Positions 40,274 to 58,437 of a stretch of 64,000 nt of DNA are shown piece after piece. The notes below the pieces were generated by a model that had not been told where the DNA came from, made no database searches, and saw only the letters and a list, made by a program, of their open reading frames with translations. The first letter of the stretch is position 1. Every line of letters begins with the position of its first letter. The stretch is from an uncultured Ruminococcus sp. (GTDB taxonomy: Bacteria > Bacillota > Clostridia > Oscillospirales > CAG-272). The DNA is taken from assembly GCA_905202255.1 (NCBI GenBank), contig CAJKRH010000003.1, positions 2,466 to 66,465 of the forward strand. The letters run 5' to 3'. Position numbers and translations under genes: made by a program.

Positions 40274-40598
40274 GTCATCACTTCCCGATACCTTGCGGTA
40301 TTTTATGAGAAGATAAGAGAACCTGAAATCCCCCGCCATAGACGAATTGACCGGGCATTTTGATTGCTTTTGCGAAAAATTACGAAAAAAGCTGATGTCG
40401 CGGTGTTTTTCGTCATCGACCAACTTCTAACAAAAATCTAACGGCTTTTTTAGAAATTTCATTAGAAGTCCGCGAAAAAAGCCTTTTTGAATTGCGATTT
40501 GGCAGTCCGCCGACTGTGTCTGCACGGAGTGATACAAAAGCAAAAATCATCTGTATCTCTGTGCATACAGTCCGAAGCTCGGACTGCTTTTTTGCGAA

Positions 40599-41798: not shown

Positions 41799-41958
41799 AA
41801 AATCGCCCCCTTTCTTTTATAGTATACCATAAAAAATGAAAATAATCAAGTAGTTTTTCGGTTTTGACCTTAAAAACATATAGACATAAAGCACTTTATA
41901 AAATTCCCGATTTTTTTGCGGTTTGCCGCATTTATTTCTTGCAGGAGGTGTTTTGACC

Positions 41959-42051
41959 ATGAAAATCATGCGCTCGCAGTACTTGATTCAGCTTATCAAA
42001 AAGATGCACAACGGTCGTGTAAAAATCATCACGGGAATCCGCAGGCGTTGA
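41959..42051 (+). pseudogene. 30-codon N-terminal stub of a second AAA/DUF4143-type ATPase gene
   Basis: MKIMRSQYLIQLIKKMHNGRVKIITGIRRR-stop. It ends exactly where the Walker A (GKS) should follow, and GGAGG lies upstream. Confidence 0.6.
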
Positions 42052-42998
42052 AACCTATTTTTCGTATTTTGAAGATGCTTTCTTGCTACAAAATCCCTAC
42101 GGTAAAGAAAGTGTTTATCCCATCACCACCTGAAACAAATTAAATAACTAACGATAACGCCACACAGCCCCTTGATTCAAAAAGGATCAAGGGGCTGTTG
42201 TTATCTCGCCACACGCCCCAAATTCGGGCGCGTGACGGCTTTCTGATTTGCGTGCGGGAAAACGCTCCTCCGAGCCATTCAAAGCAGACACAGGCGATTC
42301 CAGCGGGCGTGCGAGGGGGATGCGGCACATAGTATGATTTCAATGTGTTGCGCCTCAGACTTGAATCGATTATCGGCAGTTATACAATGGATTTCACGAG
42401 TATTTTCAAGGGTCGATTTTCAAGCGGGAGAAAGGCAGTGCGTCAAACGCCCTGCCGGATTCACAGCGGACGGCAGAGCCGACCGCATTTTCTCGCGTTT
42501 TGACCGCATTTGCTCGTTTTTTTGCGCATATCGGTTAGAAGAAGGCAGTGTGTCAAGCACGCGTATAATCGCGGAATCGGTGTGTCAACCATACGCATGA
42601 TTCCGCAAAACAGGCGGATTTTTCGCTTGGTTGCGGGCGTTTCCCGTGTGTCAGGTATACACACAAAAAAATCAATATCTCTGCAACCAAGGGGGTAGTG
42701 TTTGTATCAGGTGAACCATGGGTGGGTTCACCATGAACCCCCAATGTAAACTATACAAGAGAAAGAATATATAGAAAAACAGAAAAAGAACAACAAAGAG
42801 AACGCCCGTTTCTCCGTTGCGCCGCGAATCGTTTCCTGAGTGCGCCGACGGGAATCGGCCGATCCGGTTTTCTTTTTCTGCTTTTTCTTTGTCCGAAAAA
42901 AGATTTCGTGAAAGATATTTTTTGATTCGATTATCAAAGCTAAGAGAGTGCCGACCGTTTTTCTGCAAAAAAGTTTGATAATTTTTTCGTCCAAACGC

Positions 42999-43230
42999 GA
43001 AAAAAGTGTGGAATATAGGGTGAGAGGAACTTTCCCTGAAAAAAAGTTTCCGCCGACAGGTTGTAAAATCTGAAAAAAGTGTGGAATACAGGGTGAGGAA
43101 GTTTTTTCAAAAAACTTTTCGCTCAAACCACAAAAAAGTGTGGAATACAGGGTGAGAGGACTTTCCCTGAAAAAAAGTTCCCACTGAAGGGCTATCAAAC
43201 CCGAAAAAAGTGTGGAATACAGGGTGAGGG
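42999..43230 (+). repeat. four iteron-like direct repeats (~28 nt) spaced 60-73 bp apart
   Basis: GAAAAAAGTGTGGAATA[T/C]AGGGTGAG(A)GG occurs at 42999, 43072, 43131 and 43203. Units 1 and 3 also share the following ACTTTCCCTGAAAAAAAGTT. Confidence 0.85.
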
Positions 43231-43675
43231 GAAAAATAATCCTCCGGGTTCATTGACAACCGAATAAAGGGATACCGAGGTAGCATCCCGCCTTGCCCGA
43301 AAGGGCGAGCCGCCGGGACCGGGCGCCATGACCTCACCTATCGGGTGAGCGAGCGATCAACCGTGTTGCCGGACCGACCGATAAACAGCATCGGCGGCAG
43401 GCGATGACAGAGGTGCGGAACAATGATACTTCTGCGAAAGCAGCCCGCGATTTGCATGCGGGATACGGGGGTTACGGGCTGGAACTCTTATGTCCGCGAC
43501 ACTGTATATGATCCTCGTTTCCGTGAAAATAGTCACGGAATAGATGCTGCGAGGTACTCGGTATCTCCCCTGTGGGCAACGGTCTGCGCCGTCTGACGAC
43601 TGCGCTCTCCGTTGCCCCATCGCCGGGGCTGATATAAATACGGCGATACAAAAAATAAGTTGGGAGGACAAAAGT

Positions 43676-43984
43676 ATGATCTCCGAAAAAAACAGAACAC
43701 GAAACCTGACCATCACCCTGCGCGTTACATCGTCGGAGCGAGAACTTTTCCTCCGCGGCGCAGAGAAAAGAAACATGACGCTGACGGATTTTCTCGTCAG
43801 TGCCGCGCTCTATAAACCAAGTCACGCCATCAAAGAATGCAAAGCCATTCTCAAAAAACTGAATGAAGTGCAGGCAGAATTGCTCCGAGCCGAGTCCGAC
43901 CATCCCGATTATGCGGATGTGCTGGCGGCGCAAAAGGAGCTGTATCAGTTGCTTTTTCTGCTTGCAAGAAAGGAAACGATATGA
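43676..43984 (+). CDS. MobC-like ribbon-helix-helix protein (relaxosome accessory / RHH family)
   Basis: Start ATG 43676 after GGGAGGA. RNLTITLRVTSSERELFLRGAEKRNMTLTDFLVSAAL is the RHH pattern seen in MobC-type proteins. Confidence 0.6.
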   Translation: MISEKNRTRNLTITLRVTSSERELFLRGAEKRNMTLTDFLVSAALYKPSHAIKECKAILKKLNEVQAELLRAESDHPDYADVLAAQKELYQLLFLLARKETI

Positions 43985-44283
43985 ACATACAAACCGAAAT
44001 CAAGCCCTGCCTTGCGGATTATCCCGACGCTCTCACCGTGGTTGAAGTCATCGCTATCCTTCGCGTCAGTCGGAAAACGGTGTACGAGTTGATCAAAGAC
44101 GGGCGCATCAAAGCGGTCAAGGTCGGACGCAGTCACCGCATCGCAAAGGAGAATCTCATCGAATTTCTGAACCCCGCCGCGGCACATTCGAACCCCGGTT
44201 GTGTTCTTTCTGATAACAATCGGGAAAAGGTCTGGACTTGCGAACAACAGTGTGGTATGTTGTGTGTTGCGCGGACAGCGTAA
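43981..44283 (+). CDS. excisionase-family HTH protein (Xis-like)
   Basis: ATGA overlap with the upstream gene. LTVVEVIAILRVSRKTVYELIKDGRIKAVKVGRSHRIAKENLIEFL matches the HTH_17/excisionase pattern. Confidence 0.7.
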   Translation: MNIQTEIKPCLADYPDALTVVEVIAILRVSRKTVYELIKDGRIKAVKVGRSHRIAKENLIEFLNPAAAHSNPGCVLSDNNREKVWTCEQQCGMLCVARTA

Positions 44284-44310
44284 AACCAAAAGCACAAGGA
44301 GAAAAGCATC

Positions 44311-45513
44311 ATGCCACAAGCAAAAAATCATCTGACCGCCAGCACGCAAGCCAAGAACGGAAGCCTCTATGCGGTCATCCAGTACAAGGACGAGAACGGA
44401 AAGCGGAAAAACAAATGGAAGTCCCTCGGGCTGAAAGAAGGAGCTTCCAAAGCCAAAATCAACGCCGCCATGCGCGAGGCGGTCAATGACTTCGAGAAAG
44501 AGCTGACCGAAATTCTTACGCGCTCACAGAATCCAGATGCGGATATGCCGGTCTTCGAGTACATGGTCAAATGGCTCGGCAGCGTCCAGCCGAGCCTGCA
44601 AATCAACACCTATCGCAGTTACCACAACATGATCTACGGCAGAATCAAACGCTACTTCGGTCCGAAACCCATCACCATCGCAAGCCTGCGCCCGAACCAG
44701 ATCGACGAGTTCTATCAGTCCATCTTCGATGAAGGCATGGTCGCCAACACGGTCATTCACTATCACGCAGTCATGCGCCGCGCGTTCCAGCAGGCGTACA
44801 AGAAAGAAATCCTCTCTGCCAATCCCTTTGACCGCGTGGAACGCCCAAAGAAAAACAAATTCTTCGGTCAGAATCTCTCGGAAGAAGAACTGCTGACACT
44901 GCTCAGTCTCGCAAGATCGGAAGCCATCTACCCGGCAATCATCCTTGCAGGGTGCATGGGACTGCGACGGAGTGAAGCACTCGGCATGCGGTGGTCACGC
45001 ATTGACATGGAGAAGCGCGAGGTTCTGCTCGACACCAAGGTTGTAGAAGTCGAGATTGACGGCGAGAAAATTCTCAAACCGATTGAGGAAATGAAGAACT
45101 CCAGCAGTCGCAGAAGCCTGCCGATCCCCGCGCCGGTCTATGAAATGCTGGTCGAACAAAAGGCACAACAGGACCTCTACCGCCGTATGTTCAAGGGCAG
45201 TTACAACCGCGCATACGACGATTATGTGTGCACGGACAAGCTGGGCAACCTTCTGACACCGCGATATGTCACGCTCCGCTTCTCGCAGGTGCTTGAGAAG
45301 AACGGCATGCGGCACATCCGCTTCCACGACCTGCGACACACCTTCGCCAGCATTCTCATCAACAAGGACATCCCGCTGTTCAATGTATCGAAATACCTTG
45401 GTCACTCGGACATCAGTACAACGGCAAATATCTATGCGCACCTGGACAAGAGCGGAAAAGACATCAGTGCGGAAACCATCAGCGCGCTGTTTGATGATCG
45501 GCATCACGACTAA
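44311..45513 (+). CDS. tyrosine-type site-specific recombinase/integrase
   Basis: N-terminal arm-binding-like SLYAVIQYKDENGKRKNKWKSLGL. Catalytic residues in GLRRSEALGMRW, HDLRHTFAS and LGHSDISTTANIYAHL. Confidence 0.92.
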   Translation: MPQAKNHLTASTQAKNGSLYAVIQYKDENGKRKNKWKSLGLKEGASKAKINAAMREAVNDFEKELTEILTRSQNPDADMPVFEYMVKWLGSVQPSLQINTYRSYHNMIYGRIKRYFGPKPITIASLRPNQIDEFYQSIFDEGMVANTVIHYHAVMRRAFQQAYKKEILSANPFDRVERPKKNKFFGQNLSEEELLTLLSLARSEAIYPAIILAGCMGLRRSEALGMRWSRIDMEKREVLLDTKVVEVEIDGEKILKPIEEMKNSSSRRSLPIPAPVYEMLVEQKAQQDLYRRMFKGSYNRAYDDYVCTDKLGNLLTPRYVTLRFSQVLEKNGMRHIRFHDLRHTFASILINKDIPLFNVSKYLGHSDISTTANIYAHLDKSGKDISAETISALFDDRHHD

Positions 45514-45546
45514 TCGTGGTGCCGATTTCTGATAGGGGGTGAGTGC

Positions 45547-46083
45547 ATGGAACAGATCATCAGCGCGGATGCGGCAAGAGCGTACCTGCATATATCCAAA
45601 CGAAAATTCCTGTTTATGCTGCAAAACGGCTATATCCGATACGAGGACAACGGCAACAAAACGCATCGGTACTCATTGCGGATGTGCGATGTGGAAGCCC
45701 TGCGGAAGGAAATGACCGATCATCCCGAACGCTTTGCCGACCTGAATGGGCGGTTTACGGCGCAAAGAAACAAGCCGCCGACACCGACCATTGTACTGTC
45801 GCAGGAGGAAGCGAGAAAGTTACGCGAATACATAGCAAAATGTTGGAGCAAATATCCCGATGCCTTGCCAAGCAAGCTGGCGGCAGAGCTGACCGGCTTG
45901 ACGGTGGGAACGCTCAATCGCTACGTGGCAAGAGGCAACATCTTCGGTGCGGTGGTCGGCGGAAAAGTGCTGATCAGCAAGCAAAGCCTGATCGGACATA
46001 TCGCCTCTCCGGAGACGGCGCGCAAAGTCGGGACAGAGCAACTGCGAAATTTGCTTGCAGGGTATAAAAAAGAGAAAAAATAA
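45547..46083 (+). CDS. double-HTH (excisionase-family-like) DNA-binding protein, full-length copy
   Basis: 178 aa. Two HTH_17-like segments: ..AARAYLHISKRKFLFMLQNGYIRY.. and ..AAELTGLTVGTLNRYVARGNIFGAVVGGKVLISKQSL.. Confidence 0.75.
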   Translation: MEQIISADAARAYLHISKRKFLFMLQNGYIRYEDNGNKTHRYSLRMCDVEALRKEMTDHPERFADLNGRFTAQRNKPPTPTIVLSQEEARKLREYIAKCWSKYPDALPSKLAAELTGLTVGTLNRYVARGNIFGAVVGGKVLISKQSLIGHIASPETARKVGTEQLRNLLAGYKKEKK

Positions 46084-46134
46084 AGAGCAAAGGAATGGTC
46101 TTGAGATGTTCTCAAGGTTGTTCCTTTGCTCTTT
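45583..46134 (+). repeat. ~555-bp direct repeat, copy B (HTH gene plus compound terminator hairpin)
   Basis: Pairs with 37095-37649. It ends with hairpin AGCAAAGGAA...TTCCTTTGCT, which encloses CTTGAG..CTCAAG. Confidence 0.85.
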
Positions 46135-46241
46135 GCCAGCAACTTGACAAAAACAAACCACTTACTAAACCTTGTGTCTTCAATTTCGAACATGAATTTC
46201 GCATTTGCAAAGTCAAATTTCGACATTATGCTTTCCACCAC

Positions 46242-46270
46242 TTGTTTTTCTGCAGCAAATATGATATAAT
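46242..46270 (+). promoter_or_regulatory. sigma70-type promoter of the defence operon
   Basis: TTGTTT (46242-46247), a 17-nt spacer, and TATAAT (46265-46270), 30 nt upstream of ATG 46301. Confidence 0.55.
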
Positions 46271-46300
46271 ATAATGAGTCTATTGGGTTAGGAGTAAAAC

Positions 46301-46528
46301 ATGAGTGTGAGTTACAAAAAGCTGTGGAAGCTATTGATTGATAAGGACATGAAGAAAAAAGATCTCCAGTTGGCTACCGGTCTCAGTTCTTCAACCATTG
46401 CAAAAATGACAAAGAACGAATCGGTCAATACAGAAGTGCTTGTCAAAGTCTGCACGGCGCTCGGCTGCGATATAGGCGACATTATGGAAGTGATTCCGGA
46501 TATCAAATCTGACACGGAGAAACGCTAA
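46301..46528 (+). CDS. XRE-family HTH protein (controller-like, 75 aa)
   Basis: LLIDKDMKKKDLQLATGLSSSTIAKMTKNESVNTEVLVKVCTALGCDIGDIMEV is a Cro/C1-type HTH. Its stop overlaps the next start (TAATG). Confidence 0.8.
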   Translation: MSVSYKKLWKLLIDKDMKKKDLQLATGLSSSTIAKMTKNESVNTEVLVKVCTALGCDIGDIMEVIPDIKSDTEKR

Positions 46529-49500
46529 TGGAACTTATCGATAATATCAACAAAACATTGAAAGATGACCTGGCAGATTCGATACACAGCGGGAGTAAAA
46601 TATCCATTGCCGCAGCTTGCTTTTCGATATACGCCTTTCAAGCGTTAAAAGATCAACTTACACAAATAGATGAGCTGCGTTTTATTTTCACCTCCCCGAC
46701 ATTCATCGCCGAGAAAGCCAAAAAAGAACGCCGGGAGTTTTATATTCCTCGCCTTACGCGAGAAAGAAGCCTTTATGGAACGGAGTTTGAAATAAGGCTA
46801 CGCAATGAGTTGACTCAAAAAGCCATTGCTAAAGAATGTGCAGATTGGATCCGAGCGAAAGTTACTTTCAAATCCAACATCAGTGATAAATCCATCCAAG
46901 GGCAATTAGTGGTTGACGATGCAGGCTATACACCAATCAATGGCTTTACGACAGTTGAACTCGGCTGCGAAAAAGGAAACGCAATGAACACAACCATCGT
47001 AAAAGATGCTTCTCTTGCTAAAACGCTCTTGGCAGGATTTAATGATATTTGGTCTGACAGCAAATTGCTTCAAAATGTGACAGACGAAATTATCGATAGC
47101 ATCTCCACTGCTTACAACGAGAATTCACCCGAATTCATCTACTTTGTAACGCTCTATAATATCTTCAACGAATTCCTTGAAGATATTTCAGAAGATGTTT
47201 TGCCGAATGAAGCGACCGGATTTAAGGAAAGTAAAATCTGGGGAATGCTTTATAACTTCCAAAGGGATGCTGCATTGGCGATTATCAATAAACTTGAAAA
47301 GTTCAACGGATGCATCCTGGCAGACAGCGTGGGATTGGGCAAAACCTTCACCGCACTGGCGGTTATTAAGTACTACGAAAACCGCAACAAATCGGTTCTC
47401 GTCCTCTGCCCTAAAAAACTGGCGAACAACTGGAACACCTATAAGGATAACTATGTCAATAATCCAATCGCCGCTGACCGTCTTCGCTATGATGTGCTTT
47501 ATCATACTGACCTGTCGAGAAACCACGGTTCCTCCAATGGTTTAGACTTGGATCGCTTGAACTGGGGCAATTATGATCTGGTCGTAATCGATGAATCACA
47601 CAACTTCAGAAACGGCGGGAAATCCGGCGGCGATTCGGAAAAAGAAAACAGATATCTCCGACTTTTGAACAAAGTCATCAGAACAGGTGTAAAGACCAAG
47701 GTTTTAATGCTCTCGGCAACGCCGGTAAACAATCGTTTTAATGATTTGAAAAATCAGCTTGCGCTTGCTTATGAGGGTAATTCAAACCTGATCAACGAAA
47801 AACTGAACACCAAAAGCACAATTGAGGAAATATTCCGTCAGGCTCAGCGGGCGTTTAACACATGGAGCAAACAAGATCCTCGCAGCAGAACCACCGAAAG
47901 CCTCCTGAAAATGCTGGACTTCGATTTCTTTGAGGTACTGGATTCTGTTACGATTGCCCGTTCAAGAAAGCACATTGAAAAATACTATGATACCGCAGAT
48001 ATCGGTTCTTTTCCGGAAAGGCTTAAGCCAATTTCCTTGTATCCGCCACTGACAGATCTGCGCAGTGCGATCAACTATAACGAAATATTTGAGCAGCTGA
48101 TGCTTTTGAATCTTGCAATTTATACTCCATCCCACTACATTCTCGACAGCAAAAAAAGCAAATACGCTGATTTGTTTGACGATGAAAAGGTTAATGTGGG
48201 CTTTACACAGGCGAACCGAGAGCAAGGCATCAGGCGTTTGATGGCAATCAACCTGATGAAACGAATGGAAAGCTCCGTCGCATCGTTCAGACTCACATTG
48301 AGCCGGATTGACAATCTGCTGAAAACAACGATATCAACCATTGACAGCTTCAATCAGTATTCCGATACCAACGTCAATCTGGAAGACATCTCTCAGCTGA
48401 ACGATTTTGATCTTGATGACCAAAACGATGATGAACTCTTTTCTTTCGGGAAAAAGGTCAAAATCAATCTGAGCGATATGGACTATACATCATGGCGCAG
48501 AGATCTTGCAAAGGACAAAGAAACCATTGAACTTTTGACTGTCATGGTTGCTGATATTACACCGGAGCATGACAGCAAATTGCAGGAGCTTTTCAGAGTT
48601 CTCTCAAATAAGATTGAGCATCCCATCAATGACAATAATCGAAAGGTTATTATTTTCACCGCATTTTCTGATACCGCAGAGTACCTTTATGAGAATGTGA
48701 GCAGGTTTGTTCTCCAAAACTATCATTTGAACACCGCAATGGTAACAGGCTCGGTTGACGGCCGTTCAACCGTTCCTCGTCTGCACTGCGATATGAATAC
48801 CGTGCTGACTTGCTTCTCTCCGATCTCTAAAGATAAAGAACTGCTGATGCCCGGTGATACGACAGAAATAGATGTGCTGATTGCAACCGACTGTATTTCC
48901 GAAGGTCAGAACCTGCAGGATTGCGACTATCTCATCAATTACGATATTCACTGGAATCCCGTTCGCATCATTCAGCGGTTCGGGCGTATCGACCGTATCG
49001 GAAGCCGCAATAAAGTCATTCAGCTGGTAAACTTCTGGCCAAATGTTACACTTGACGAATATATAGACCTCAAGGCACGTGTTGAAACCCGTATGAAGAT
49101 CGTTGATATGACCGCAACCGGAGACGACAACATATTGCAAGAAGAAAAGTCCGATCTGGAATACAGGAAAGCACAATTGAAGCGCCTCCAGGAAGAAGTC
49201 GTTGATATCGAGGAAATGTCCTCCGGCATCTCCATCATGGATCTGGGCTTAAATGAATTCCGGCTCGACCTGCTGGAATATGTCAAAGCAAATCCCAATC
49301 TTGACAAAACACCGTTCGGACTTCACGCCGTAGCCGCTTCAAATGATGAATGCCCTCCGGGCGTTGTGTTCGTGCTGAAGAACCGATCAAACAGCATCAA
49401 TATCGACCACCAGAATCGGCTGCATCCGTTCTATATGGTGTATATTGCCGATGATGGCGAAGTTGTTTGCGACCACCTTTCGCCCAAAGCAATGCTGGAC

Positions 49501-49755
49501 AAGCTCCGCTATTTGTGCAAAGGTAAAGCCACGCCGATTCCGGAACTGTACCGTCGGTTCAATAAGGAAACGAAAGACGGACGCAATATGCAAGCAACCT
49601 CCGCATTGCTTGGAGATGCGATTGCATCCATTATCGAAACCAAAGAAGAAAGCGAGATTGATACATTCCTTGGCGGTGGTCAGATGAGCTTTTTGTCAAA
49701 CGAAATCAAGGGGCTGGATGATTTTGAACTGATCTGCTTCTTGGTCGTAAAATAA
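46528..49755 (+). CDS. SNF2-family helicase with ~230-aa N-terminal extension (possibly an inactivated PLD-like N-domain)
   Basis: Motif I ILADSVGLGKT, motif II VVIDESHNFRN, and C-terminal lobe ATDCISEGQNLQDCDYLINYDIHWNPVRIIQRFGRIDRIGS. I could not find an HxK..D motif in the N-terminal region. Confidence 0.85.
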   Translation: MELIDNINKTLKDDLADSIHSGSKISIAAACFSIYAFQALKDQLTQIDELRFIFTSPTFIAEKAKKERREFYIPRLTRERSLYGTEFEIRLRNELTQKAIAKECADWIRAKVTFKSNISDKSIQGQLVVDDAGYTPINGFTTVELGCEKGNAMNTTIVKDASLAKTLLAGFNDIWSDSKLLQNVTDEIIDSISTAYNENSPEFIYFVTLYNIFNEFLEDISEDVLPNEATGFKESKIWGMLYNFQRDAALAIINKLEKFNGCILADSVGLGKTFTALAVIKYYENRNKSVLVLCPKKLANNWNTYKDNYVNNPIAADRLRYDVLYHTDLSRNHGSSNGLDLDRLNWGNYDLVVIDESHNFRNGGKSGGDSEKENRYLRLLNKVIRTGVKTKVLMLSATPVNNRFNDLKNQLALAYEGNSNLINEKLNTKSTIEEIFRQAQRAFNTWSKQDPRSRTTESLLKMLDFDFFEVLDSVTIARSRKHIEKYYDTADIGSFPERLKPISLYPPLTDLRSAINYNEIFEQLMLLNLAIYTPSHYILDSKKSKYADLFDDEKVNVGFTQANREQGIRRLMAINLMKRMESSVASFRLTLSRIDNLLKTTISTIDSFNQYSDTNVNLEDISQLNDFDLDDQNDDELFSFGKKVKINLSDMDYTSWRRDLAKDKETIELLTVMVADITPEHDSKLQELFRVLSNKIEHPINDNNRKVIIFTAFSDTAEYLYENVSRFVLQNYHLNTAMVTGSVDGRSTVPRLHCDMNTVLTCFSPISKDKELLMPGDTTEIDVLIATDCISEGQNLQDCDYLINYDIHWNPVRIIQRFGRIDRIGSRNKVIQLVNFWPNVTLDEYIDLKARVETRMKIVDMTATGDDNILQEEKSDLEYRKAQLKRLQEEVVDIEEMSSGISIMDLGLNEFRLDLLEYVKANPNLDKTPFGLHAVAASNDECPPGVVFVLKNRSNSINIDHQNRLHPFYMVYIADDGEVVCDHLSPKAMLDKLRYLCKGKATPIPELYRRFNKETKDGRNMQATSALLGDAIASIIETKEESEIDTFLGGGQMSFLSNEIKGLDDFELICFLVVK

Positions 49756-49774
49756 AATCAAAGGAGGCATGGAT

Positions 49775-50380
49775 ATGCTTGGATTCCCACAGAAAACAGA
49801 ATTACGAAAACCACTACATAAAAAAGTGATTTTTGAAAAGCTTCAACTGAACACCTTACAGCAAGATCGTGTGGATGCAGACATTTCACGCCTCTATTTT
49901 GTCAATGAGATCTCGCCTTACAGCGTAGGGATTACAGATGGAGAAGCCGTCAAGGCGTTTTATGTGATCCTGGTCTGCCTCAAGCGGAAGGATTATGACG
50001 ATAAAACGATCTCGATGCTCTTTCGCTTGATCGACAACAAAATGATTCTCGTTCTGCAATATGAAACCGAAAGCCGGGTGGCGATCTTTCATGGGAAACT
50101 CATTCAAACGGATTGGAAGCCAACAGACGCATTTTCCTTCTCCCTGCAAGGGCTGAACCTTGATTCAGTATGGAACAACCTAATCATTCAAATCGGGGAT
50201 ATTCACCCTGAAAGCGGACGCTCCATTGAAGAACAGATTGCACTTGACGAACAACGAAAAAAGATAGAAAAGGAAATTGCGTCTCTCGAAAAAATGGCAC
50301 GAGCGGAAAAACAGCCGAAAAAGAAGTTTGAACTGGTGCAACGGATTAGAGCTTTAAAAGAAAATCAAAATTCACCATAA
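49775..50380 (+). CDS. DUF4391-like protein
   Basis: MLGFPQKTELRKPLHKKVIFEK... and ...SLQGLNLDSVWNNLIIQIGDI match my memory of DUF4391 proteins (LP..T...IPK..F; L.GLN.D.VY.N...QI), followed by a C-terminal coiled-coil tail. Start set at the second ATG, 7 nt after AAGGAGG. Confidence 0.6.
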   Translation: MLGFPQKTELRKPLHKKVIFEKLQLNTLQQDRVDADISRLYFVNEISPYSVGITDGEAVKAFYVILVCLKRKDYDDKTISMLFRLIDNKMILVLQYETESRVAIFHGKLIQTDWKPTDAFSFSLQGLNLDSVWNNLIIQIGDIHPESGRSIEEQIALDEQRKKIEKEIASLEKMARAEKQPKKKFELVQRIRALKENQNSP

Positions 50381-50393
50381 GGAGGTTGTCGTT

Positions 50394-50912
50394 ATGTTTC
50401 TATATAAATTGCTACTCACTCTAAACGCAACATCATGGATGGCGATCATATATGTAATAAAAGAAGGTTGGACAATTGGGAAAGTGCCAAATCATTTGTT
50501 TGGAATACTGCTTTTGATAATTCCGATCTTTCTGTCATGGATTTCGCTTATTATGACTCGTTTTTTAGGAATTGAATCTTTAGTTGGTAATTGCAAAGAG
50601 TTTAGCCTTGCAGATGGGGAGTTTCTACCGATATATTTGGGGTATTTCTTTGTTTCCGTGGGAGTTTCTGACCTCTTTACAATGGCAGTGGTATACCTCA
50701 TAGTATTTGTCTTTACCTTTTTATCACAAACACAATACTATAATCCCATATATCTGCTTTTTGGCTATCATTACTACCACGTCACGACTGAAAATGGTAC
50801 AAGTATTTTTATTATCAGAAAAGGTCCAGTTATTCGAAATTCCGCAGAGCTAAGATTCGATCATTTGCATCGTTTGAACAATACAACTTTTATTGAGAGG
50901 AAGACAAAATGA
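50394..50912 (+). CDS. small ~4-TM membrane protein (KwaA-like candidate)
   Basis: 172 aa with AAGGAGG 8 nt upstream. Hydrophobic segments lie at about residues 3-24, 34-57, 76-92 and 96-112, followed by a ~60-aa soluble tail. About 33% GC by hand count of the first 60 nt. Confidence 0.6.
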   Translation: MFLYKLLLTLNATSWMAIIYVIKEGWTIGKVPNHLFGILLLIIPIFLSWISLIMTRFLGIESLVGNCKEFSLADGEFLPIYLGYFFVSVGVSDLFTMAVVYLIVFVFTFLSQTQYYNPIYLLFGYHYYHVTTENGTSIFIIRKGPVIRNSAELRFDHLHRLNNTTFIERKTK

Positions 50913-51754
50913 GTAATATATGTGTAAAATTAAAGCAACGTGAAAACAGCAAGTATCGACTGATGCTTTCATCAGATGAAACTATCTTTCCGGTATTTGA
51001 TCCGGAAAGTGCTTCAACATCACCATACACTCCGGGAGCAACGCTTGAAGATGATGATTGGTTTTGCATTCAGAATGTTCGGGATACTGAATATAGCATA
51101 GATTTGCTTTCTGAAACCTTTACCACCGTAGACTTGGCTTTACTCACTCATGCAGAATTTGAAAGGATAGATTACCTGTTTGCATTTGATGATAGATTCA
51201 TCTTCTTTCAGAATATATCCAAGTCAAATTTGATTGCACAAAAAAGAATTTTCCGCTTTGGAGAAGAATTCAAATACAGAACCAACTGCTCGGAAATTGT
51301 TATCAGAGAAATTCCGGATGCAATTTATGATAAAACCACCGACAGCCTATATTTCCGTAAACTCGAATCTATCACCAGTATATTCAGGGGGATAGATATG
51401 CTTTATCGCGAAGCCACGCAAGAAGAAACAGATTCTTTTCTTGCAAATGATTTTATCAACTTAAAGGATGACTATTCCGGCAGCAAAGTAAAAACCGCCA
51501 ACAGAAAAAGGATTGCTCTTGCAGCAAAAACCCTGTCGGAGCTTGGAGAAACCGATCGAAAGAACATCTTTGCCTACATAGGCGAATACTGTCCCGAATT
51601 GAAAGTTTCAGAAAATGCTTTTGAAGTTGGTTCTGAAAATGAATTGAAAATGCTGCTGTATGGTATCGAGCAGAGGTTTTATACTACTCCGGTTGGTGGA
51701 GAGAAACGCCTTGCCAATTCGGTTATTACATTGAATCAAGGAGGACAAGCATAA
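50909..51754 (+). CDS. 281-aa soluble protein, DUF4868/KwaB-like candidate
   Basis: ATGA overlap with the 4-TM gene. The segment ..IREIPDAIYDKTTDSLYFRKLESITSIFRGIDMLYREATQEETDSFL.. resembles the DUF4868 core as I remember it. Not verified. Confidence 0.5.
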   Translation: MSNICVKLKQRENSKYRLMLSSDETIFPVFDPESASTSPYTPGATLEDDDWFCIQNVRDTEYSIDLLSETFTTVDLALLTHAEFERIDYLFAFDDRFIFFQNISKSNLIAQKRIFRFGEEFKYRTNCSEIVIREIPDAIYDKTTDSLYFRKLESITSIFRGIDMLYREATQEETDSFLANDFINLKDDYSGSKVKTANRKRIALAAKTLSELGETDRKNIFAYIGEYCPELKVSENAFEVGSENELKMLLYGIEQRFYTTPVGGEKRLANSVITLNQGGQA

Positions 51755-53736
51755 TGGATAAACTGAAAATGCAAACGGCGAACAAAGCCGATGAGAACTA
51801 CAGAAAGCTGGCGGAGATGTTCCCGAACGCCGTGACGGAGACGATTGACGAGAACGGCGAGGTTGTTCGTGCCATTGACAAGGATGTGCTGATGCAGGAA
51901 ATCAACACAAAGGTCGTTGACGGAAAAGAGGAACGCTATCAGTTCACCTGGCCGGACAAGAAGAAATCTGTCCTGCTGGCGAACGCTCCCATTTCCAAAA
52001 CGCTGCGTCCAGTTCGTGATGATGAAACAAAACCCACCGGTGCGGACAGTGAGGGAAAACCTTATTGTAGCACTGGCAGCGTGGACTTTGATACCACCGA
52101 AAACCTCTATATCGAGGGTGATAACCTTGAAGTGCTGAAGCTCCTGCAGGAAACCTATCTCGGCAAAATCAAGATGATTTACATAGACCCGCCGTACAAT
52201 ACGGGAAATGACTTTGTGTATGAGGATGATTTTGCCCAAAGCACTGATGAGTACCTTGCAAATAGCGGACAGTTTGACGAGTACGGCAACCGTATGGTGC
52301 AGAACACCGAGAGCAACGGTCGTTTCCATACGGACTGGCTTAATATGATGTACACCCGTTTGCGAATTGCTAAAGATTTGCTTGCAGATGATGGTGTTAT
52401 TTTCATATCGATTGATGATAACGAGATTGCTAATCTCAGCAAAATGTGCGATGAAATATTTGGTAGTGATAACGCCATAGCTGTGTTTCCAAGACTTGCG
52501 ACAAAGAGTGGTAAGACCCCTCTAACATTTATGGTGAGTCACGATTATGTTCTTTGCTATACGAAATCCAGGCATGATATTTTTGTCGGACAAGCATTTG
52601 AGGACGATAGTTATAAATACTCCGATGAATACGAGGCGGAAAGAGGAAGGTATAATCTCAAGCAACCTCTGGATTGTAATTCGATAAGTTACTCAGCTTC
52701 TCTTGACTATCCAATTACACATGAAGGAGTCACTTATTATCCGGGTAGTGATTATAACAAATATCTTGAGAGACAAAGCGGTAAACATCTACCCAAAGAT
52801 TACGCATGGCGATGGTCAAAAGAGTTGTTCGAGTTTGGCTTGAAAAACGGATGGATTGTTTTTCAAAACGGGCGAATCTATACAAAGGGGTATCTTAACG
52901 CTGCGATTGAAAAACAGCCGAACGGGTCTTATGCTGTCGTAAAGAGAGAAAAAACACGAAAAATGTCTACCATTGATTTTATATCAAACGATTATTCTAA
53001 CGACATTGCCAAGAAGCAACTTGCTTCTCATAAAATTTCTGCTCGATTTGATTTTCCAAAACCAGTGGATTTAATTAAGGCATTGTTGGCTACGCACTAT
53101 GATAAAGATGCTTTGGTTGTAGATTTTTTCAGCGGATCTGCTACTACCGCCGAAGCTGTTTTTAAGCAGAACATAACAGATGGTGGCAATCGAAGGTTTA
53201 TTCTTGTCCAGTTGCCCGAGGAAACACAAGATAGTACATACAAAAACATCTGTGAAATCGGCAAGGAACGCATCCGTCGTGCCGGTAAGAAAATCAAAGA
53301 AGAAGCGGGACTTACTGCACAAAACCTCGACATCGGTTTCCGTGTTCTGAAGTGCGATACCTCCAACATGAAAGATGTGTATTACAATCCCGACGATTAT
53401 GAAATCGGTATGTTCGATCAGCTGACTGACAACATAAAGGAAGACAGAACTCCCGAAGATTTGCTTTTCCAGGTTATGCTCGATCTTGGCGTTCTTCTGT
53501 CAAGCAAAATTGAGGAAACCACCATTGCCGGTAAGAAGGTGTTCAATGTGGAGGGTAACTACCTGATCGCCTGCTTTGATGACAATGTAACCGACGAAGT
53601 CATTACGGCAATTGCAAAACAAGAACCGTACTACTTTGTCATGCGCGATAGCTCCATGGCTTCCGACAGCGTGGCAACCAACTTCGATCAGATTTTCGCT
53701 ACCTATAGTCCGACCACGATAAGGAAGGTGCTATGA
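51754..53736 (+). CDS. type III-like N6-adenine DNA methyltransferase (Mod, beta-class, DPPY)
   Basis: Motif IV MIYIDPPYNTGNDFVY precedes motif I VVDFFSGSATTAEAV. This order, with a variable middle region, is typical of Mod subunits. Confidence 0.88.
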   Translation: MDKLKMQTANKADENYRKLAEMFPNAVTETIDENGEVVRAIDKDVLMQEINTKVVDGKEERYQFTWPDKKKSVLLANAPISKTLRPVRDDETKPTGADSEGKPYCSTGSVDFDTTENLYIEGDNLEVLKLLQETYLGKIKMIYIDPPYNTGNDFVYEDDFAQSTDEYLANSGQFDEYGNRMVQNTESNGRFHTDWLNMMYTRLRIAKDLLADDGVIFISIDDNEIANLSKMCDEIFGSDNAIAVFPRLATKSGKTPLTFMVSHDYVLCYTKSRHDIFVGQAFEDDSYKYSDEYEAERGRYNLKQPLDCNSISYSASLDYPITHEGVTYYPGSDYNKYLERQSGKHLPKDYAWRWSKELFEFGLKNGWIVFQNGRIYTKGYLNAAIEKQPNGSYAVVKREKTRKMSTIDFISNDYSNDIAKKQLASHKISARFDFPKPVDLIKALLATHYDKDALVVDFFSGSATTAEAVFKQNITDGGNRRFILVQLPEETQDSTYKNICEIGKERIRRAGKKIKEEAGLTAQNLDIGFRVLKCDTSNMKDVYYNPDDYEIGMFDQLTDNIKEDRTPEDLLFQVMLDLGVLLSSKIEETTIAGKKVFNVEGNYLIACFDDNVTDEVITAIAKQEPYYFVMRDSSMASDSVATNFDQIFATYSPTTIRKVL

Positions 53737-53737
53737 G

Positions 53738-55036
53738 TTGAAGCAAATAACAGAAATAACACGAAGAGATATCTTCGCTTTGTTTCAATATGGCATGGAT
53801 ATAGACGAATTGTGGGAAACCAAACGAGTACGCTATGGCTATTATGGCAACCTAAGCGAGATTGATTTTCTCAAACGGATTTATGACCTCAAAGAACTTC
53901 CGAGTTATGATAATCGTTTTGAAGATGCCGAGGGCGACATATGGCAGCACACGATAAATAACGACGATTATGAAAATGGTTGGATTTTTGAGGACGATAG
54001 ATTTGAACTCTTGAATGGCGACGATGAAGTTCTGCTGAAGTTCTTATGTGCTGTTTTTCATCCTGCGGTTAGGTATGAAAAAGGTTATTGGAAAGAAATT
54101 CTTGATGCAGTAAACGGACTGCTTCACAACGACGGCTATGAGCTTTATCCGGAAAGCAAAATATCCGGACGAGATGTGTATGGTTGGCGTAAATACGACC
54201 AGGAGGAAAGTTCTTTGTTTGTCCCTTTCTCACAAAGGCACGAAAAGGCAATAAAGGCAAAAGAGCTTAAACTCTCGTTGAGTATGAAAATCCGAAACCA
54301 AATTTACAAACTTATCGAAAGATACTCAACCGTATATCGTGAAACCGATGATACTGGATGGAACTATGATATTACTACGAGTGAATGTATCTTTAGAGAT
54401 ATTTCACAGTTCTATAAGCCGAAGTGCTTTGACGCAAGCAATAATTATGTTGAAACCTCGGATATGGAGCAATTTATTCTGCATAATTCACCATTCTGCG
54501 TTCTTGATGTGATTGAGTTGTGCGAAAAGTACAATGCCGAAAGTGATTATTCGTCTCAGATGAATACACTTTTTAAGTTAAATTCGGTTGGATACAGATT
54601 AGAACAAGGGAGAGTTGTAAGTACCTTCGAAGTCCCTATTGACAAAAAGGTTGTATCGGATATTTCCGAACAAGGTTTGAAGGAACTTATAGAAGAAGCA
54701 GATAACTATTATCGAGCAGGCAATAAACAGATTGCAGTAGAGAAAATATGGGATGCTTTTGAGAGACTGAAAACCTTTTATTCTCCGGCACTTAATAAGG
54801 CATCATCTGCGAACAAAATAATTGATGATATGAGTTCTTCAGACCCTCACTATAAGGCTATGTATGAAGACGAGTTCAAGGCACTAACGAACATTGGCAA
54901 TGGGTTCAGAATTCGCCATCACGAAACGACCAAGGTTGATATTACGGACAATCGACAATACGACTATTTTTACAAGCGTTGTCTTGCCTTGATTTCTGTC
55001 GCTATCCTATACTTGGAAGGAGGAAGTCACAAATGA
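53738..55036 (+). CDS. 432-aa AbiJ-like protein: conserved N-terminal module plus HEPN-like C-terminus (candidate)
   Basis: TTG start 8-10 nt after AAGGAAGGTG. The N-terminus reads ..FLKRIYDLKELPSYDNRFEDAEGDIWQHTINNDDYENGWIFEDDRFELLNGDDEVLLKFLCAVFHPAVR.. The C-terminus reads ..IWDAFERLKTFY...LTNIGNGFRIRHHETTK.. About 33% GC in the first 60 nt. Confidence 0.5.
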   Translation: MKQITEITRRDIFALFQYGMDIDELWETKRVRYGYYGNLSEIDFLKRIYDLKELPSYDNRFEDAEGDIWQHTINNDDYENGWIFEDDRFELLNGDDEVLLKFLCAVFHPAVRYEKGYWKEILDAVNGLLHNDGYELYPESKISGRDVYGWRKYDQEESSLFVPFSQRHEKAIKAKELKLSLSMKIRNQIYKLIERYSTVYRETDDTGWNYDITTSECIFRDISQFYKPKCFDASNNYVETSDMEQFILHNSPFCVLDVIELCEKYNAESDYSSQMNTLFKLNSVGYRLEQGRVVSTFEVPIDKKVVSDISEQGLKELIEEADNYYRAGNKQIAVEKIWDAFERLKTFYSPALNKASSANKIIDDMSSSDPHYKAMYEDEFKALTNIGNGFRIRHHETTKVDITDNRQYDYFYKRCLALISVAILYLEGGSHK

Positions 55037-58000
55037 AATTCAAATTCAAGATACAGGGGTACCAAACCGATGCGGTAGACGCAGTGGTGAAAGTATTTGG
55101 CGGACAACCGTTTCAGGAAAGAACAAATTTCCGTCGGGATGTCGGCAAACTGTCGGCTCCGCAGCAAATTGCTTTGGAAATCGATGAGGACGGCGAAGCG
55201 CTTAACAGCGAGGTCGGCTATAAAAACGCCGCCGTGGAACTTTCCGACGATCAACTGCTTCGCAATATCAATGAGATTCAGTCACAGAACAATATTAAAC
55301 TTTCTTCCGCTTTAACCAGCGGAAGCAACTGCGGAAGATGCAGTCTTGATATTGAAATGGAAACCGGCACGGGCAAAACCTATGTCTACATCAAGACGAT
55401 GTTTGAGCTGAACAAGCGGTATGGCTGGAGCAAGTTCATTGTGGTCGTACCGTCAATCGCAATCCGTGAAGGCGTCAAAAAGTCGTTTGAAATCACCGAA
55501 GATCACTTCATGGAGAACTACGGCAAGAAAGCAAGATACTTTATCTACAACAGCTCAAATCTGGAGCAGCTCGATACTTTTTCTTCAAGCTCCGGCATCA
55601 ATGTCATGATCATCAATACACAGGCATTTGCCGCTTCACTGAAAGAGGACGGTAAGAGCAAGGAGGCGAAGATAATTTTCTCTCCGCGCGATACCTTTGG
55701 CTCCCGCAAGCCGATTGATGTTATTGCAGCTAACCATCCGATTCTCATTATGGATGAGCCGCAGAAAATGGGCGGCGAAGTGACGCAGAATGCACTCAAG
55801 AACTTTCATCCGCTGTTCACGATCAACTATTCTGCAACGCATAAAACGCAGCACAATCTTGTCTATGTATTGGATGCGTTGGATGCTTTCAACAAACGCC
55901 TGGTCAAGAAGATTGAGGTCAAGGGCTTTGAGGTAAAGAATTTCAGAGGAACAGACCATTATCTCTACTTTGAGAGCATTATTCTTTCCCAAAAGAAGCC
56001 TCCTATGGCTCGGATCGAGCTTGAAATCGGCTACAACAAATCGGTCAACCGGGAAACCCGTGTTCTCGGTGTCGGCGACGATCTGTTCTACATTTCGCAG
56101 GAAATGGGGCAATACAAAGGCTATACCATTTCGGAAATTGATCCGATTCAGAATACCATAACCTTCACAAACGGTGTTGTTCTGAAAGCCGGCGAGATCG
56201 TAGGAGATATTTCAGAACGGGATATGCGCCGAATCCAGATCAGAGAAACCATTCTTTCACATTTTGAGAAAGAAGAAAAACTCTTTAATATGGGCATCAA
56301 GTGCCTCTCATTGTTTTTCATCGATGAAGTATCAAAATATCGCCAGTACGATGAAAACGGAGACGAGAAACTCGGCGAGTACGGACAGATGTTCGAGCAG
56401 GAGTATATCAGCGTCCTCAACGACTATGTAACCTTGCTCGATACGCCTTATCAACGGTATCTGAAATCGACTTGCTCCGATGTATCCGCCGTACATAAAG
56501 GCTACTTCAGCATCGATAAGAAGACCGGCAGAAGCATCGACAGCGAGTTGAAGCGCGGCAGTGAATTCTCAGATGATATTTCTGCCTACGATCTGATCCT
56601 CAAAAACAAGGAGCGTCTGCTGTCATTTGAAGAACCGACACGGTTTATTTTCTCTCATTCCGCATTGCGTGAAGGTTGGGATAATCCGAATGTATTTCAG
56701 ATCTGCACATTGAAGCATTCAGACAGTCAAACAGCAAAACGCCAAGAGGTCGGACGAGGGCTTCGCCTTTGCGTCAATCAAACCGGAAGTCGTATGGATT
56801 CCGAGACGCTCGGTTCTTCGGTGCAGGATGTAAATCTCTTGACGGTTGTGGCAAGCGAAAGCTACCGTGATTTTGTCGGAGCCTTACAGTCAGACATTAA
56901 GACGGTTCTTTATGACAGACCGACTACCGCAACAAGCGAGTATTTCAACGGCAAGTATGTGAAAGTCAACGATGTCCCGACCCTGATCGATAAAAACGCA
57001 GCAGATACAATTGAATTCTATCTCATCAGTAACGGCTATGTAAATATGCAGCGTAAGGTCACGGACAAGTACCGCATGGATGTGCAAATGGGAACAATCG
57101 CTCCGCTTCCGGCAGAACTTGAACCTATGAGCGGTGGGATTCATACATTGATTCAATCGGTATATGATGATACCGTCATTGATGATATGTTCACCGACGG
57201 ACATGAATCTGCCATTAAAGAAAATCCGCTGAATGATAACTGGGCAAAGAAGGAATTCCAAGCCCTTTGGAATCAGATCAACCACAAGTACGCATACACT
57301 GTATCTTTTGACAGCAATGAATTGATCGCCAAGGCAATCGCTCATATTGATGACAAATTATTCGTTTCCGAACTGCAATACACAACTTCTATCGGCAGAC
57401 AGAAAACAGAAATGAATGAGTATGAGGTCGACAGAGGTGAATCGTTCGGTTCTGTAAAAACGAGAACGCAGACTCTCAGGCACGCAGAAACCAGTCAGGT
57501 CAAGTATGACCTGATCGGTAAAATAGCCGGTGGGACGACTCTGACAAGAAAAACCGTGGCGGCAATTCTGAAAGGAATACGCCAGGACAAACTTTATATG
57601 TTCAGGAATAACCCGGAGGAATTCATTTCAAAGGTTATTCGGTTGATCAACGAGCAAAAGGCAACCATGATTGTGGAGCATATCTCCTATAACTCAATCG
57701 AAGGCGGATTTGACAGTGGTATTTTTACTGCGGATAAGAGCAAACAAGCCTTTGATAAAGCATTCAGAGCCGAAAAGGCGATTCAGGATTATGTTTTCAC
57801 AGATGGCTCCGCCGAGCAAAGCATCGAACGCAAATTCGCACAGGATCTCGATGCTGCCGCAGAAGTCTGCGTATATGCAAAACTGCCGAAGGGCTTCCAC
57901 ATTCCAACTCCTGTTGGCAATTACTCTCCCGACTGGGCGATTGCTTTCTATGAGGGGACAGTGAAGCACATATTCTTTGTTGCCGAAACAAAGGGAACGA

Positions 58001-58146
58001 TGGAAAGTCTGAATCTCCGTCCAATCGAGCAAGCCAAAATTTCTTGCGCAAAGAAACTGTTCAATGAGATGTCCAACAGCCAAGTTCGCTATCATGATGT
58101 GGATAGCTATCAGAGTCTGTTAGACATTATGAACTCAATGGTTTAA
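55033..58146 (+). CDS. type III restriction enzyme Res subunit (SF2 helicase plus C-terminal PD-(D/E)xK-like nuclease)
   Basis: Start ATG 55033 (MKFKFKIQGYQTDAV) after GGAAGGAGGAAG, with an ATGA overlap. Motifs METGTGKTY and ILIMDEPQKM, and a C-terminal ..YSPDWAIAF...IFFVAETKG. Confidence 0.88.
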   Translation: MKFKFKIQGYQTDAVDAVVKVFGGQPFQERTNFRRDVGKLSAPQQIALEIDEDGEALNSEVGYKNAAVELSDDQLLRNINEIQSQNNIKLSSALTSGSNCGRCSLDIEMETGTGKTYVYIKTMFELNKRYGWSKFIVVVPSIAIREGVKKSFEITEDHFMENYGKKARYFIYNSSNLEQLDTFSSSSGINVMIINTQAFAASLKEDGKSKEAKIIFSPRDTFGSRKPIDVIAANHPILIMDEPQKMGGEVTQNALKNFHPLFTINYSATHKTQHNLVYVLDALDAFNKRLVKKIEVKGFEVKNFRGTDHYLYFESIILSQKKPPMARIELEIGYNKSVNRETRVLGVGDDLFYISQEMGQYKGYTISEIDPIQNTITFTNGVVLKAGEIVGDISERDMRRIQIRETILSHFEKEEKLFNMGIKCLSLFFIDEVSKYRQYDENGDEKLGEYGQMFEQEYISVLNDYVTLLDTPYQRYLKSTCSDVSAVHKGYFSIDKKTGRSIDSELKRGSEFSDDISAYDLILKNKERLLSFEEPTRFIFSHSALREGWDNPNVFQICTLKHSDSQTAKRQEVGRGLRLCVNQTGSRMDSETLGSSVQDVNLLTVVASESYRDFVGALQSDIKTVLYDRPTTATSEYFNGKYVKVNDVPTLIDKNAADTIEFYLISNGYVNMQRKVTDKYRMDVQMGTIAPLPAELEPMSGGIHTLIQSVYDDTVIDDMFTDGHESAIKENPLNDNWAKKEFQALWNQINHKYAYTVSFDSNELIAKAIAHIDDKLFVSELQYTTSIGRQKTEMNEYEVDRGESFGSVKTRTQTLRHAETSQVKYDLIGKIAGGTTLTRKTVAAILKGIRQDKLYMFRNNPEEFISKVIRLINEQKATMIVEHISYNSIEGGFDSGIFTADKSKQAFDKAFRAEKAIQDYVFTDGSAEQSIERKFAQDLDAAAEVCVYAKLPKGFHIPTPVGNYSPDWAIAFYEGTVKHIFFVAETKGTMESLNLRPIEQAKISCAKKLFNEMSNSQVRYHDVDSYQSLLDIMNSMV

Positions 58147-58163
58147 TTCAATAGCAACTCAAA

Positions 58164-58199
58164 AACCGCCTGCGATTCAATCACGAACCGTAGGCGGTT
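58164..58199 (+). terminator. hairpin downstream of res (weak terminator)
   Basis: AACCGCCTGCG...CGTAGGCGGTT, an 11-bp stem with one G-U pair and a 14-nt loop. The T-tail is poor. Confidence 0.4.
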
Positions 58200-58314
58200 A
58201 TCTTCGCTCAACTATTGTTAAAGAAAGCGGAGAGATCATTTTATCTCTGCGTTATTTCTTTGAAGTTTTGATGCTCCATCGGCATCACTGTCAACTCGTT
58301 CGTATCCTATCGGT

Positions 58315-58344
58315 AAAAACAAAAAGGACACCTTTCGGTGTCCT
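58315..58344 (-). terminator. intrinsic terminator of the intact tRNA-Ser
   Basis: AGGACACC-TTTC-GGTGTCCT, followed on the minus strand by TTTTTGTTTTT. Confidence 0.8.
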
Positions 58345-58348
58345 GCGT

Positions 58349-58437
58349 TGGCGGAGAGGAAGGGATTCGAACCCTTGTGCGCTTTCGCGCAAACTGATTT
58401 CGAGTCAGCCCCGTTATGACCACTTCGATACCTCTCC
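58349..58437 (-). tRNA. tRNA-Ser (anticodon CGA), class II with long variable arm, CCA encoded
   Basis: The minus strand reads GGAGAGGTATCGAAGTGGTCATAACGGGGCTGACTCGAAATCAGTTTGCGCGAAAGCGCACAAGGGTTCGAATCCCTTCCTCTCCGCCA. It has a 7-bp acceptor stem GGAGAGG/CCTCTCC, anticodon loop CTCGAAA, T-loop GGTTCGAATCC and a hairpin variable arm. Confidence 0.92.

Follow-up and report, generated by a model that had tools for sequence, protein, structure and literature searches.

What does an abortive-infection (Abi) gene do between the two genes of a restriction-modification (R-M) enzyme? The question is raised by a 64,000-nucleotide (nt) stretch of DNA from an uncultured Ruminococcus sp. (contig CAJKRH010000003.1, positions 2,466 to 66,465; the window hereafter), in which an open reading frame (ORF) of 432 amino acids (aa) separates mod, the methyltransferase gene of a type III-like R-M operon, from res, its helicase-nuclease gene. 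The original prediction, made from the letters and a list of ORFs, described it as an AbiJ/HEPN-like gene inserted into the operon, encoding a suicide-type RNase that would form a back-up layer behind restriction. The ORF is a real gene, and the AbiJ-like protein is exchangeable cargo, not a part of the restriction enzyme.

The mod-res junction as a cargo slot

The gene is real because its Pfam matches lie far above the gathering cut-offs, its homologues form 1,636 clusters at 90% identity, and relatives occur in 234 species of the GTDB species-representative genome set; the UniRef label of an 80%-identical homologue is 'AbiJ-related protein'. Its predicted boundaries were recomputed and agree with the sequence: the mod stop codon TGA (53734-53736) is followed by a single G and then by the TTG start at 53738, and the ORF ends in CAC AAA TGA, with which the ATG of res (55033) overlaps as ATGA. 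Both peptides quoted in the original prediction are present (aa 44-112 and 383-399). Some gene callers pick downstream starts that give 418 or 413 aa. The long TTG start has three lines of support: the match to the NTD3 model of Pfam starts at aa 3, a length of 432 aa is common among homologues, and start codon and ribosome-binding site stand at the same aligned position in 70 loci. About 60% of the family starts in these 70 loci are GTG or TTG, an unusually high share that may keep expression of a toxic protein low.

The gene had been called AT-rich relative to res from a hand count of the first 60 nt of each. That count is exact (33.3% against 43.3% GC), and the difference from the neighbours extends over the whole genes: the cargo has 38.7% GC (38.6% at third codon positions, GC3), against 43.6% (GC3 47.5%) for mod and 45.4% (GC3 53.0%) for res, while the four core genes of the operon span 42-45% GC and 45-53% GC3.

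The standing of the gene within the operon is apparent from related loci. These comprise the best 80 of more than 595 metagenome matches to Res (77-86% identity), onto which the window proteins were mapped. The backbone of HKD-SNF2 helicase, DUF4391 protein, Mod and Res is kept among them, and the interval from the mod stop to the res start is hypervariable. The full 432-aa gene is found at one of the 80 junctions (L083) and is absent from the other 79; three junctions are empty (L082, L086, L148). An occupied junction holds one tightly packed gene on the same strand, or two in the case of L150 and L004, and these genes fall into at least 19 unrelated clusters. The claim that the gene is an insertion is thus borne out: close mod/res operons hold other genes, or nothing, at this place. 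The annotated cargo comprises canonical Abi_C proteins (E=1e-23), RhuM, 23S_rRNA_IVP, DUF2971, a Shedu nuclease and a Schlafen/AlbA_2 protein, to which a DUF4145-like protein with an RNxxxH motif can be added. Nine loci carry a 212-aa 'solo' cargo that shares, in its C-terminus, 45-49% identity with aa 316-426 of the window protein; it matches the PADLOC candidate family PDC-S32 and is devoid of the AbiJ domains NTD3 and NTD4. An origin of this protein by recent in-situ truncation of the 432-aa gene is unlikely, given that level of identity in the shared domain.

The remaining cargo clusters are without annotation, and several are small membrane proteins. Clusters C9, C11-C16, C18 and C19 include such membrane proteins or proteins with no Pfam or PADLOC match. 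The commonest cargo of all, in 15 loci (L102, L104, L107, L110, L116, L122, L123, L128, L131, L132, L134, L138, L140, L142 and L158), is an unannotated protein of 113-139 aa with a coiled coil and a C-terminal transmembrane helix. The unannotated slot residents are candidates for new defence effectors.

The junctions are nucleotide-precise: mod always ends in ...AAGGAAGGTGCTG-TAATG or TGATG, res always begins with ATGAARTTTAATTTYAAR, and every cargo type carries its own GGAGG ahead of the res start. Since the end of mod is fixed, the gene that follows, be it cargo or res, starts in a stop/start overlap behind a ribosome-binding site encoded within mod. Scans for promoters and terminators in the operon did not rise above shuffled controls, and no internal signals are therefore claimed. 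With its content fully exchanged between loci whose Res and flanking sequences retain about 80% conservation, the slot acts as a natural trap for defence genes.

The gene family itself is found mostly outside such operons. Among the 80 best species-level loci that encode relatives of the AbiJ-like protein (GTDB species-representative genomes), Mod/Res flanks occur in seven, and these are the seven closest relatives (66-81% identity). The other loci (41-59% identity) have heterogeneous, defence-island-like neighbours, including ResIII helicases, Abi_C, Schlafen, recombinases and ParA-like ATPases. In 14 of 66 free-standing loci (e.g. L008, L011, L013, L015, L016, L020) a gene for a TRAM-domain rRNA/tRNA m5U methyltransferase lies directly upstream, which suggests a recurrent insertion hotspot beside a housekeeping gene in Clostridia. 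A canonical Abi_C gene (265-323 aa) also directly precedes the AbiJ-like gene, often with an overlap, in six free-standing loci (L007, L017, L021, L022, L035, L037) and once in the mod-res slot (L004, 1570-3924). This recurrent pair may reflect a partnership of two HEPN-type proteins.

Domain architecture and the C-terminal domain

The N-terminus had been assigned to the AbiJ type, and a Pfam search agrees. It finds AbiJ_NTD3 (PF18860; E=1.2e-54, 184.6 bits against a cut-off of 32.5, model positions 1-144 of 167) and AbiJ_NTD4 (PF18863; E=6.1e-11, 43.4 bits against a cut-off of 34, model positions 3-136 of 152), which together make up about two-thirds of the protein. The two domains were defined in 2013 as N-terminal modules fused to AbiJ-type HEPN and other toxin domains, and were proposed to sense phage components and to hold the toxin in check, as sensor or antitoxin (Anantharaman et al., PMC3710099). 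Proteins from a plasmid collection join NTD3 either to Abi_C (under the name 'abortive infection family protein') or to a Shedu nuclease, so the sensor-plus-effector design is modular. Foldseek searches with the full-length model against PDB and the viral structures of BFVD returned nothing significant, and no match for NTD3 or NTD4. With the AbiJ family the window protein shares these N-terminal domains, a helical C-terminal effector design, and contexts that are both defence-island and R-M-linked. It differs in carrying NTD3 and NTD4 in tandem and in a C-terminus that is not recognised by Abi_C (PF14355), G-N-x4-R-H replacing R-N-x5-H. Canonical Abi_C proteins form a separate cargo family (cluster C2) in the same slot.

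No family of Pfam or NCBIfam covers the last 135 aa. They correspond to the C-terminal part of PDC-S32 (PDLC04995), whose profile hidden Markov model is matched at E=4.2e-52 over model positions 120-300 of 301. PDC-S32 proteins (~300 aa; an AbiJ-NTD4-like region followed by the C-terminal domain; STM4504/CBY_0614-like) share the C-terminal 180 residues but differ in N-terminal architecture, the window protein having the extra NTD3, and PDC-S32 is itself a computational candidate only. A search with the C-terminal region yields 829 representative proteins (one per 50%-identity cluster); among the best 150 of these, NTD4 is present in 64, NTD3 in 28 and Abi_C in none, and five have a weak PaREP1 match.

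An AlphaFold model of the domain alone (pLDDT 93, pTM 0.87) consists of four long helices, with the G-N-x4-R-H motif in the loop that precedes the last one. Its best Foldseek matches in PDB are HEPN proteins, namely 2q00 (probability 0.97), 2hsb (0.95), 2jpu, 4nqf and 8yuf, and the same structures are the sole compact matches of the full-length model. 2hsb is deposited as a HEPN-domain protein, and 2q00 and 2jpu belong to the PaREP1 family, to which the five weak sequence matches also point. Of these structures, 2q00, 2jpu and 2hsb belong to the HEPN-T clade (PaREP1/8 and AF_0298). PaREP1/8 resembles the window domain in having the His without the canonical Arg, but these are archaeal stand-alone proteins of 9-16% identity, matched by fold only and with weak E-values.

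The motif becomes clearer in an alignment of 30 diverse members of the C-terminal domain (40-59% identical). W338, A340, E342, R343, K345, E379, L383, G387, N388, R393, H394, Y410 and C415 are invariant. The original prediction had pointed to an Arg/His cluster reminiscent of HEPN RNases, with a spacing other than canonical; the spacing is as it said, yet only part of the cluster is conserved. R391 and H395 vary across the family and N388, R393 and H394 do not, so the family motif is G-N-x4-R-H. The invariant Arg directly precedes the His, whereas the canonical Arg stands seven residues before it. The N-to-H spacing equals that of R-N-x5-H in canonical Abi_C (L-R-N-P-Y-G-S-G-H-G). The helix AVEKIWDAFERLK contributes the invariant E342, R343 and K345 and a near-invariant D339 (D339-x3-R343), and may correspond to the conserved upstream acidic residue of HEPN proteins, typically Ex3[KR]. 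Taken from the alignment, the invariant polar residues W338, E342, R343, K345, E379, N388, R393 and H394 look like an active site. A His retained in the absence of the canonical Arg is also on record for PaREP1/8 (PMC3710099, section 6), and HEPN families with a relocated R or H (PaREP1/8, AbiV) are thought to be still active (PMC3710099).

Several observations weigh against a HEPN nuclease. The Foldseek E-values are 0.2-0.4 with a TM-score of ~0.5, and a four-helix bundle readily finds matches. There is no canonical Rx4-6H, an invariant Gly occupying the position of its Arg. The window protein has no significant sequence match to HEPN families in Pfam, NCBIfam or PDB; with Abi_C there is no match at E<=1, nor for any of the 150 family members, although Abi_C proteins from the same slot, as a positive control, match at E=1e-23. 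A local hhalign comparison of a 130-sequence C-terminal alignment with Abi_C alignments (from slot cargo, neighbours and four plasmid proteins) gave a probability of 2% or less; a relaxed alignment paired I-G-N...R-H-H with Abi_C L-R-N...G-H-G, which is not evidence. Similarly, phmmer with the protein and hmmsearch with a 30-sequence C-terminal profile produced only chance matches among all PDB sequences (ribosomal L28, IL-10). For lactococcal AbiJ, HHpred support for HEPN is weak and the mechanism is not known (2026 review, PMC13064643). The literature searched neither mentions PDC-S32 nor describes an experiment on it or on this family.

The HEPN identity put forward in the original prediction is therefore weakly supported: HEPN proteins are the top Foldseek matches and 5 of 150 members match PaREP1 weakly, but the window protein has no sequence match to a HEPN family, and even the comparison with Abi_C is not significant. 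A HEPN fold of the C-terminal domain has moderate support from the model. The domain is probably a divergent, HEPN-like and catalytic one that falls outside Abi_C as now defined.

Function of the cargo and competing explanations

We think it reasonably probable that the protein is a self-contained Abi sensor-effector, captured as operon cargo and co-expressed with the R-M enzyme as a second layer of defence. AbiJ_NTD3 and AbiJ_NTD4 would serve as phage-sensing, auto-inhibitory modules, and the 135-aa helical domain would be the toxic effector, most likely a metal-independent RNase. The cargo would be co-transcribed and translationally coupled with its neighbours, its ribosome-binding site lying in the end of mod and that of res in the end of the cargo. 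The predicted outcome is abortive, a phage-triggered growth arrest that would be independent of restriction. With the cargo in the shared transcript, carriers of the island in which the operon lies would gain both DNA restriction and an independent growth-arrest layer. The idea of layered defence as such is established (PMC3710099; PMC12707154).

Three other accounts have to be weighed. A conserved specificity or accessory subunit of the type III-like enzyme is suggested by the tight operon packing and by nothing else. It is refuted by the junction contents of the 80 Res relatives, one of which has the gene, three of which have mod abutting res and the rest of which have unrelated genes; orthologues are also widespread without Mod/Res, and the base composition is unlike that of the core genes, which leaves a subunit role extremely improbable. 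A guardian in the style of PrrC, kept latent by binding to Mod/Res and freed by an anti-restriction protein (an analogue of Ocr, ArdA or Stp), is the 'built-in back-up' of the original prediction taken strictly, and has more to commend it. The gene does sit inside the operon, with translational coupling to mod on one side and to res on the other, and precedents exist in PrrC/EcoprrI and in the 16 or more HEPN clades linked to R-M operons (PMC3710099; PMC12707154). EcoR22I, a type III R-M system with an SNF2 helicase, moreover couples restriction to cell death on encountering Ocr (bioRxiv 10.1101/2023.04.06.535777). PrrC, an anticodon nuclease in a type Ic R-M operon, is likewise a HEPN-type toxin wedged into an R-M operon as layered defence. 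However, PrrC has an ABC-ATPase domain and a canonical HEPN motif, belongs to a type I operon and is known to be kept masked by its R-M enzyme, whereas the window operon is type III-like and its cargo has AbiJ N-terminal domains, no PrrC-like ABC ATPase regulatory domain, and a family that is mostly R-M-independent. EcoR22I (DrmD-like SNF2 helicase, P4 hotspot; Silas et al., 2023, preprint) resembles the window operon in bringing Mod/Res and an SNF2 helicase together on a mobile element and in combining restriction and cell death in one locus. Its cell death reportedly depends on the R-M genes, no Abi gene being embedded there, and the window operon adds DUF4391 and two cargo slots; the two are compared by description, not homology. 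Further points against a guardian are that the R-M association is not conserved (7 of 80 species-level loci with Mod/Res flanks, 1 of 80 Res relatives with the gene) and that Res changes little (about 80% identity) across loci whose slot holds any of at least 19 unrelated proteins or is empty. Such promiscuity beside a near-constant Res makes a specific Mod/Res fit for each cargo unlikely. An autonomous Abi system is likelier than a guardian, because most of the family stands apart from R-M operons and the protein brings putative sensors of its own; a guardian role we regard as unlikely for the 432-aa protein. The solo C-terminal domain, present in the same slot in nine loci without NTD3 or NTD4, speaks for a guardian; AbiJ proteins without these domains were remarked in 2013 to be those most often found in R-M operons (PMC3710099), and the guardian model may fit the solo version better.

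The remaining account concerns the effector: the C-terminal domain could be a non-nuclease, serving in oligomerisation, as a scaffold or in nucleic-acid binding, possibly as a catalytically dead HEPN domain. Defence would then be achieved in some other way, such as the binding or sequestration of a phage protein. The missing Rx4-6H and the negative or marginal sequence tests for HEPN agree with this, as do the motif-less HEPN families known as non-catalytic binders (PMC3710099, section 6). In lactococcal AbiJ, escape mutants map to phage ssDNA-annealing proteins and RNase activity is unreported (PMC13064643). However, the invariance of N, R, H and E at about 40% family identity points to catalysis over a scaffold, HEPN families with a moved R or H (PaREP1/8, AbiV) are thought active, and the same domain position is held by proven nuclease or toxin domains in other proteins. 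A non-nuclease is thus considered quite improbable, and a catalytic effector, within an autonomous Abi protein, is preferred.

The result for the gene itself is mostly confirmatory, as HEPN and Abi genes inside R-M operons, and the idea of several defence layers, go back to PrrC and were generalised in 2013 (PMC3710099). The remaining interest lies mostly in the two-slot architecture of the operon and in the G-N-x4-R-H domain family. The latter comprises more than 800 representative proteins with no Pfam model, and its relocated Arg could serve to probe the flexibility of the HEPN active site; no description of such a family came to light in an incomplete search of the literature.

The second slot, the island and neighbouring genes

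The features of the locus are collected in Table 1. The interval between the DUF4391 gene and mod is a second hypervariable slot across loci L081-L160. Kiwa fills it in the window and in L124. Its other residents are TIR_2 (13 loci), a ThsB-like TIR, DUF4365 (9 loci), DUF6680, a KAP NTPase and unknown proteins, and in L156 and L091 it is empty. The two Kiwa genes have 34.9% and 38.4% GC, so that both cargo inserts of the window are AT-richer than the core genes. The cargo of the two slots assorts independently.

Table 1. Features of the AbiJ-like gene, its operon and the surrounding island (window coordinates).
Feature	Position	Strand	Basis or remark
AbiJ-like cargo gene	53738..55036	+	432 aa, TTG start, stop overlapping res ATG (ATGA)
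AbiJ_NTD3 domain (aa 3-159), putative sensor module	53744..54214	+	Pfam PF18860
AbiJ_NTD4 domain (aa 164-295)	54227..54622	+	Pfam PF18863
C-terminal all-alpha domain (aa 298-432, 135 aa), predicted HEPN-like fold	54629..55033	+	PDC-S32 C-terminal match, model, Foldseek
Motif G387-N388-G-F-R391-I-R393-H394-H395-E396	54896..54925	+	Family alignment
Ribosome-binding site AAGGAAGG in last mod codons	53721..53728	+	Conserved; serves cargo, or res in empty loci
GGAGG in last codons of cargo, 9 nt upstream of res ATG	55019..55023	+	Ribosome-binding site for res
Type III Mod methyltransferase, 660 aa	51754..53736	+	PADLOC MTase_III, E=2.8e-204
Type III Res helicase-nuclease, 1037 aa	55033..58146	+	PADLOC REase_III, E=3.3e-290; Pfam ResIII and RE_endonuc
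HKD+SNF2 helicase (46528-49755) and DUF4391 protein (49769-50380), conserved upstream partners	46528..50380	+	Conserved with mod/res in operon family
KwaA/KwaB (Kiwa; KwaA 50394-50912, KwaB 50909-51754)	50394..51754	+	PADLOC; cargo in DUF4391-mod slot
Integrative island, ~18 kb	40214..58405		tRNA-Ser direct repeats, integrase
tRNA-Ser gene	58349-58437	-	Overlaps right repeat
Tyrosine integrase	44311-45513		Inside island

Tentatively, both slots can be seen as places where recombination exchanges cargo with nucleotide precision, so that a single transcript would amount to a miniature defence island, and G-N-x4-R-H as the mark of a distinct HEPN family with a moved Arg; the combined proposal is possible, though open to real doubt. 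If it is true, some ten unannotated slot families would be undiscovered anti-phage effectors, among them the commonest, coiled-coil and membrane-anchored protein of 113-139 aa, and the catalytic Arg would have shifted to the residue before the His in a HEPN family absent from Pfam. A catalogue of what the two slots contain in metagenomes would amount to a short list of high-confidence anti-phage candidates, and the mod-res slot offers a clean system for distinguishing embedded effectors that are independent of the R-M enzyme from those that guard it. In the literature searched, which was incomplete, the two-slot cargo architecture of this operon family is not described, and DUF4391 is named only in unrelated contexts.

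The whole R-M operon lies, together with the integrase, between exact 60-bp direct repeats of the 3' end of tRNA-Ser(cga) (40214-40273 and 58346-58405), and the island is a classic tRNA-targeted integrative element. An AbiJ-like protein that is 100% identical also occurs in two operon configurations and genomic settings (L166/L168 and L167/L169), which differ in slot-1 cargo (a 598-aa protein against Kiwa), in the length of Mod (647 against 639 aa; 660 aa in the window) and in their flanks. An identical protein in differing operons implies that operon modules have recombined or moved between gut bacteria very recently.

Some smaller features accompany the island. About 200 nt beyond the tRNA-Ser gene stands a second, partial copy of it (58597-58639), which repeats 43 nt of the 5' part (58395-58437) with one mismatch and may be a remnant of integration or excision, or a tRNA pseudogene. 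Two near-identical paralogues of 171 and 178 aa with a faint match to HTH_17 (excisionase-like) are encoded at 37083-37598 and 45547-46083. One adjoins the island integrase and the other lies ~3 kb outside the left attachment repeat, and the pair suggests a neighbouring or older related element. Finally, a 75-aa HTH_3/HTH_26 gene (46301-46528) ends exactly at the start codon of the helicase gene and is conserved in L166-L169; its product may control the operon in the manner of a C protein.

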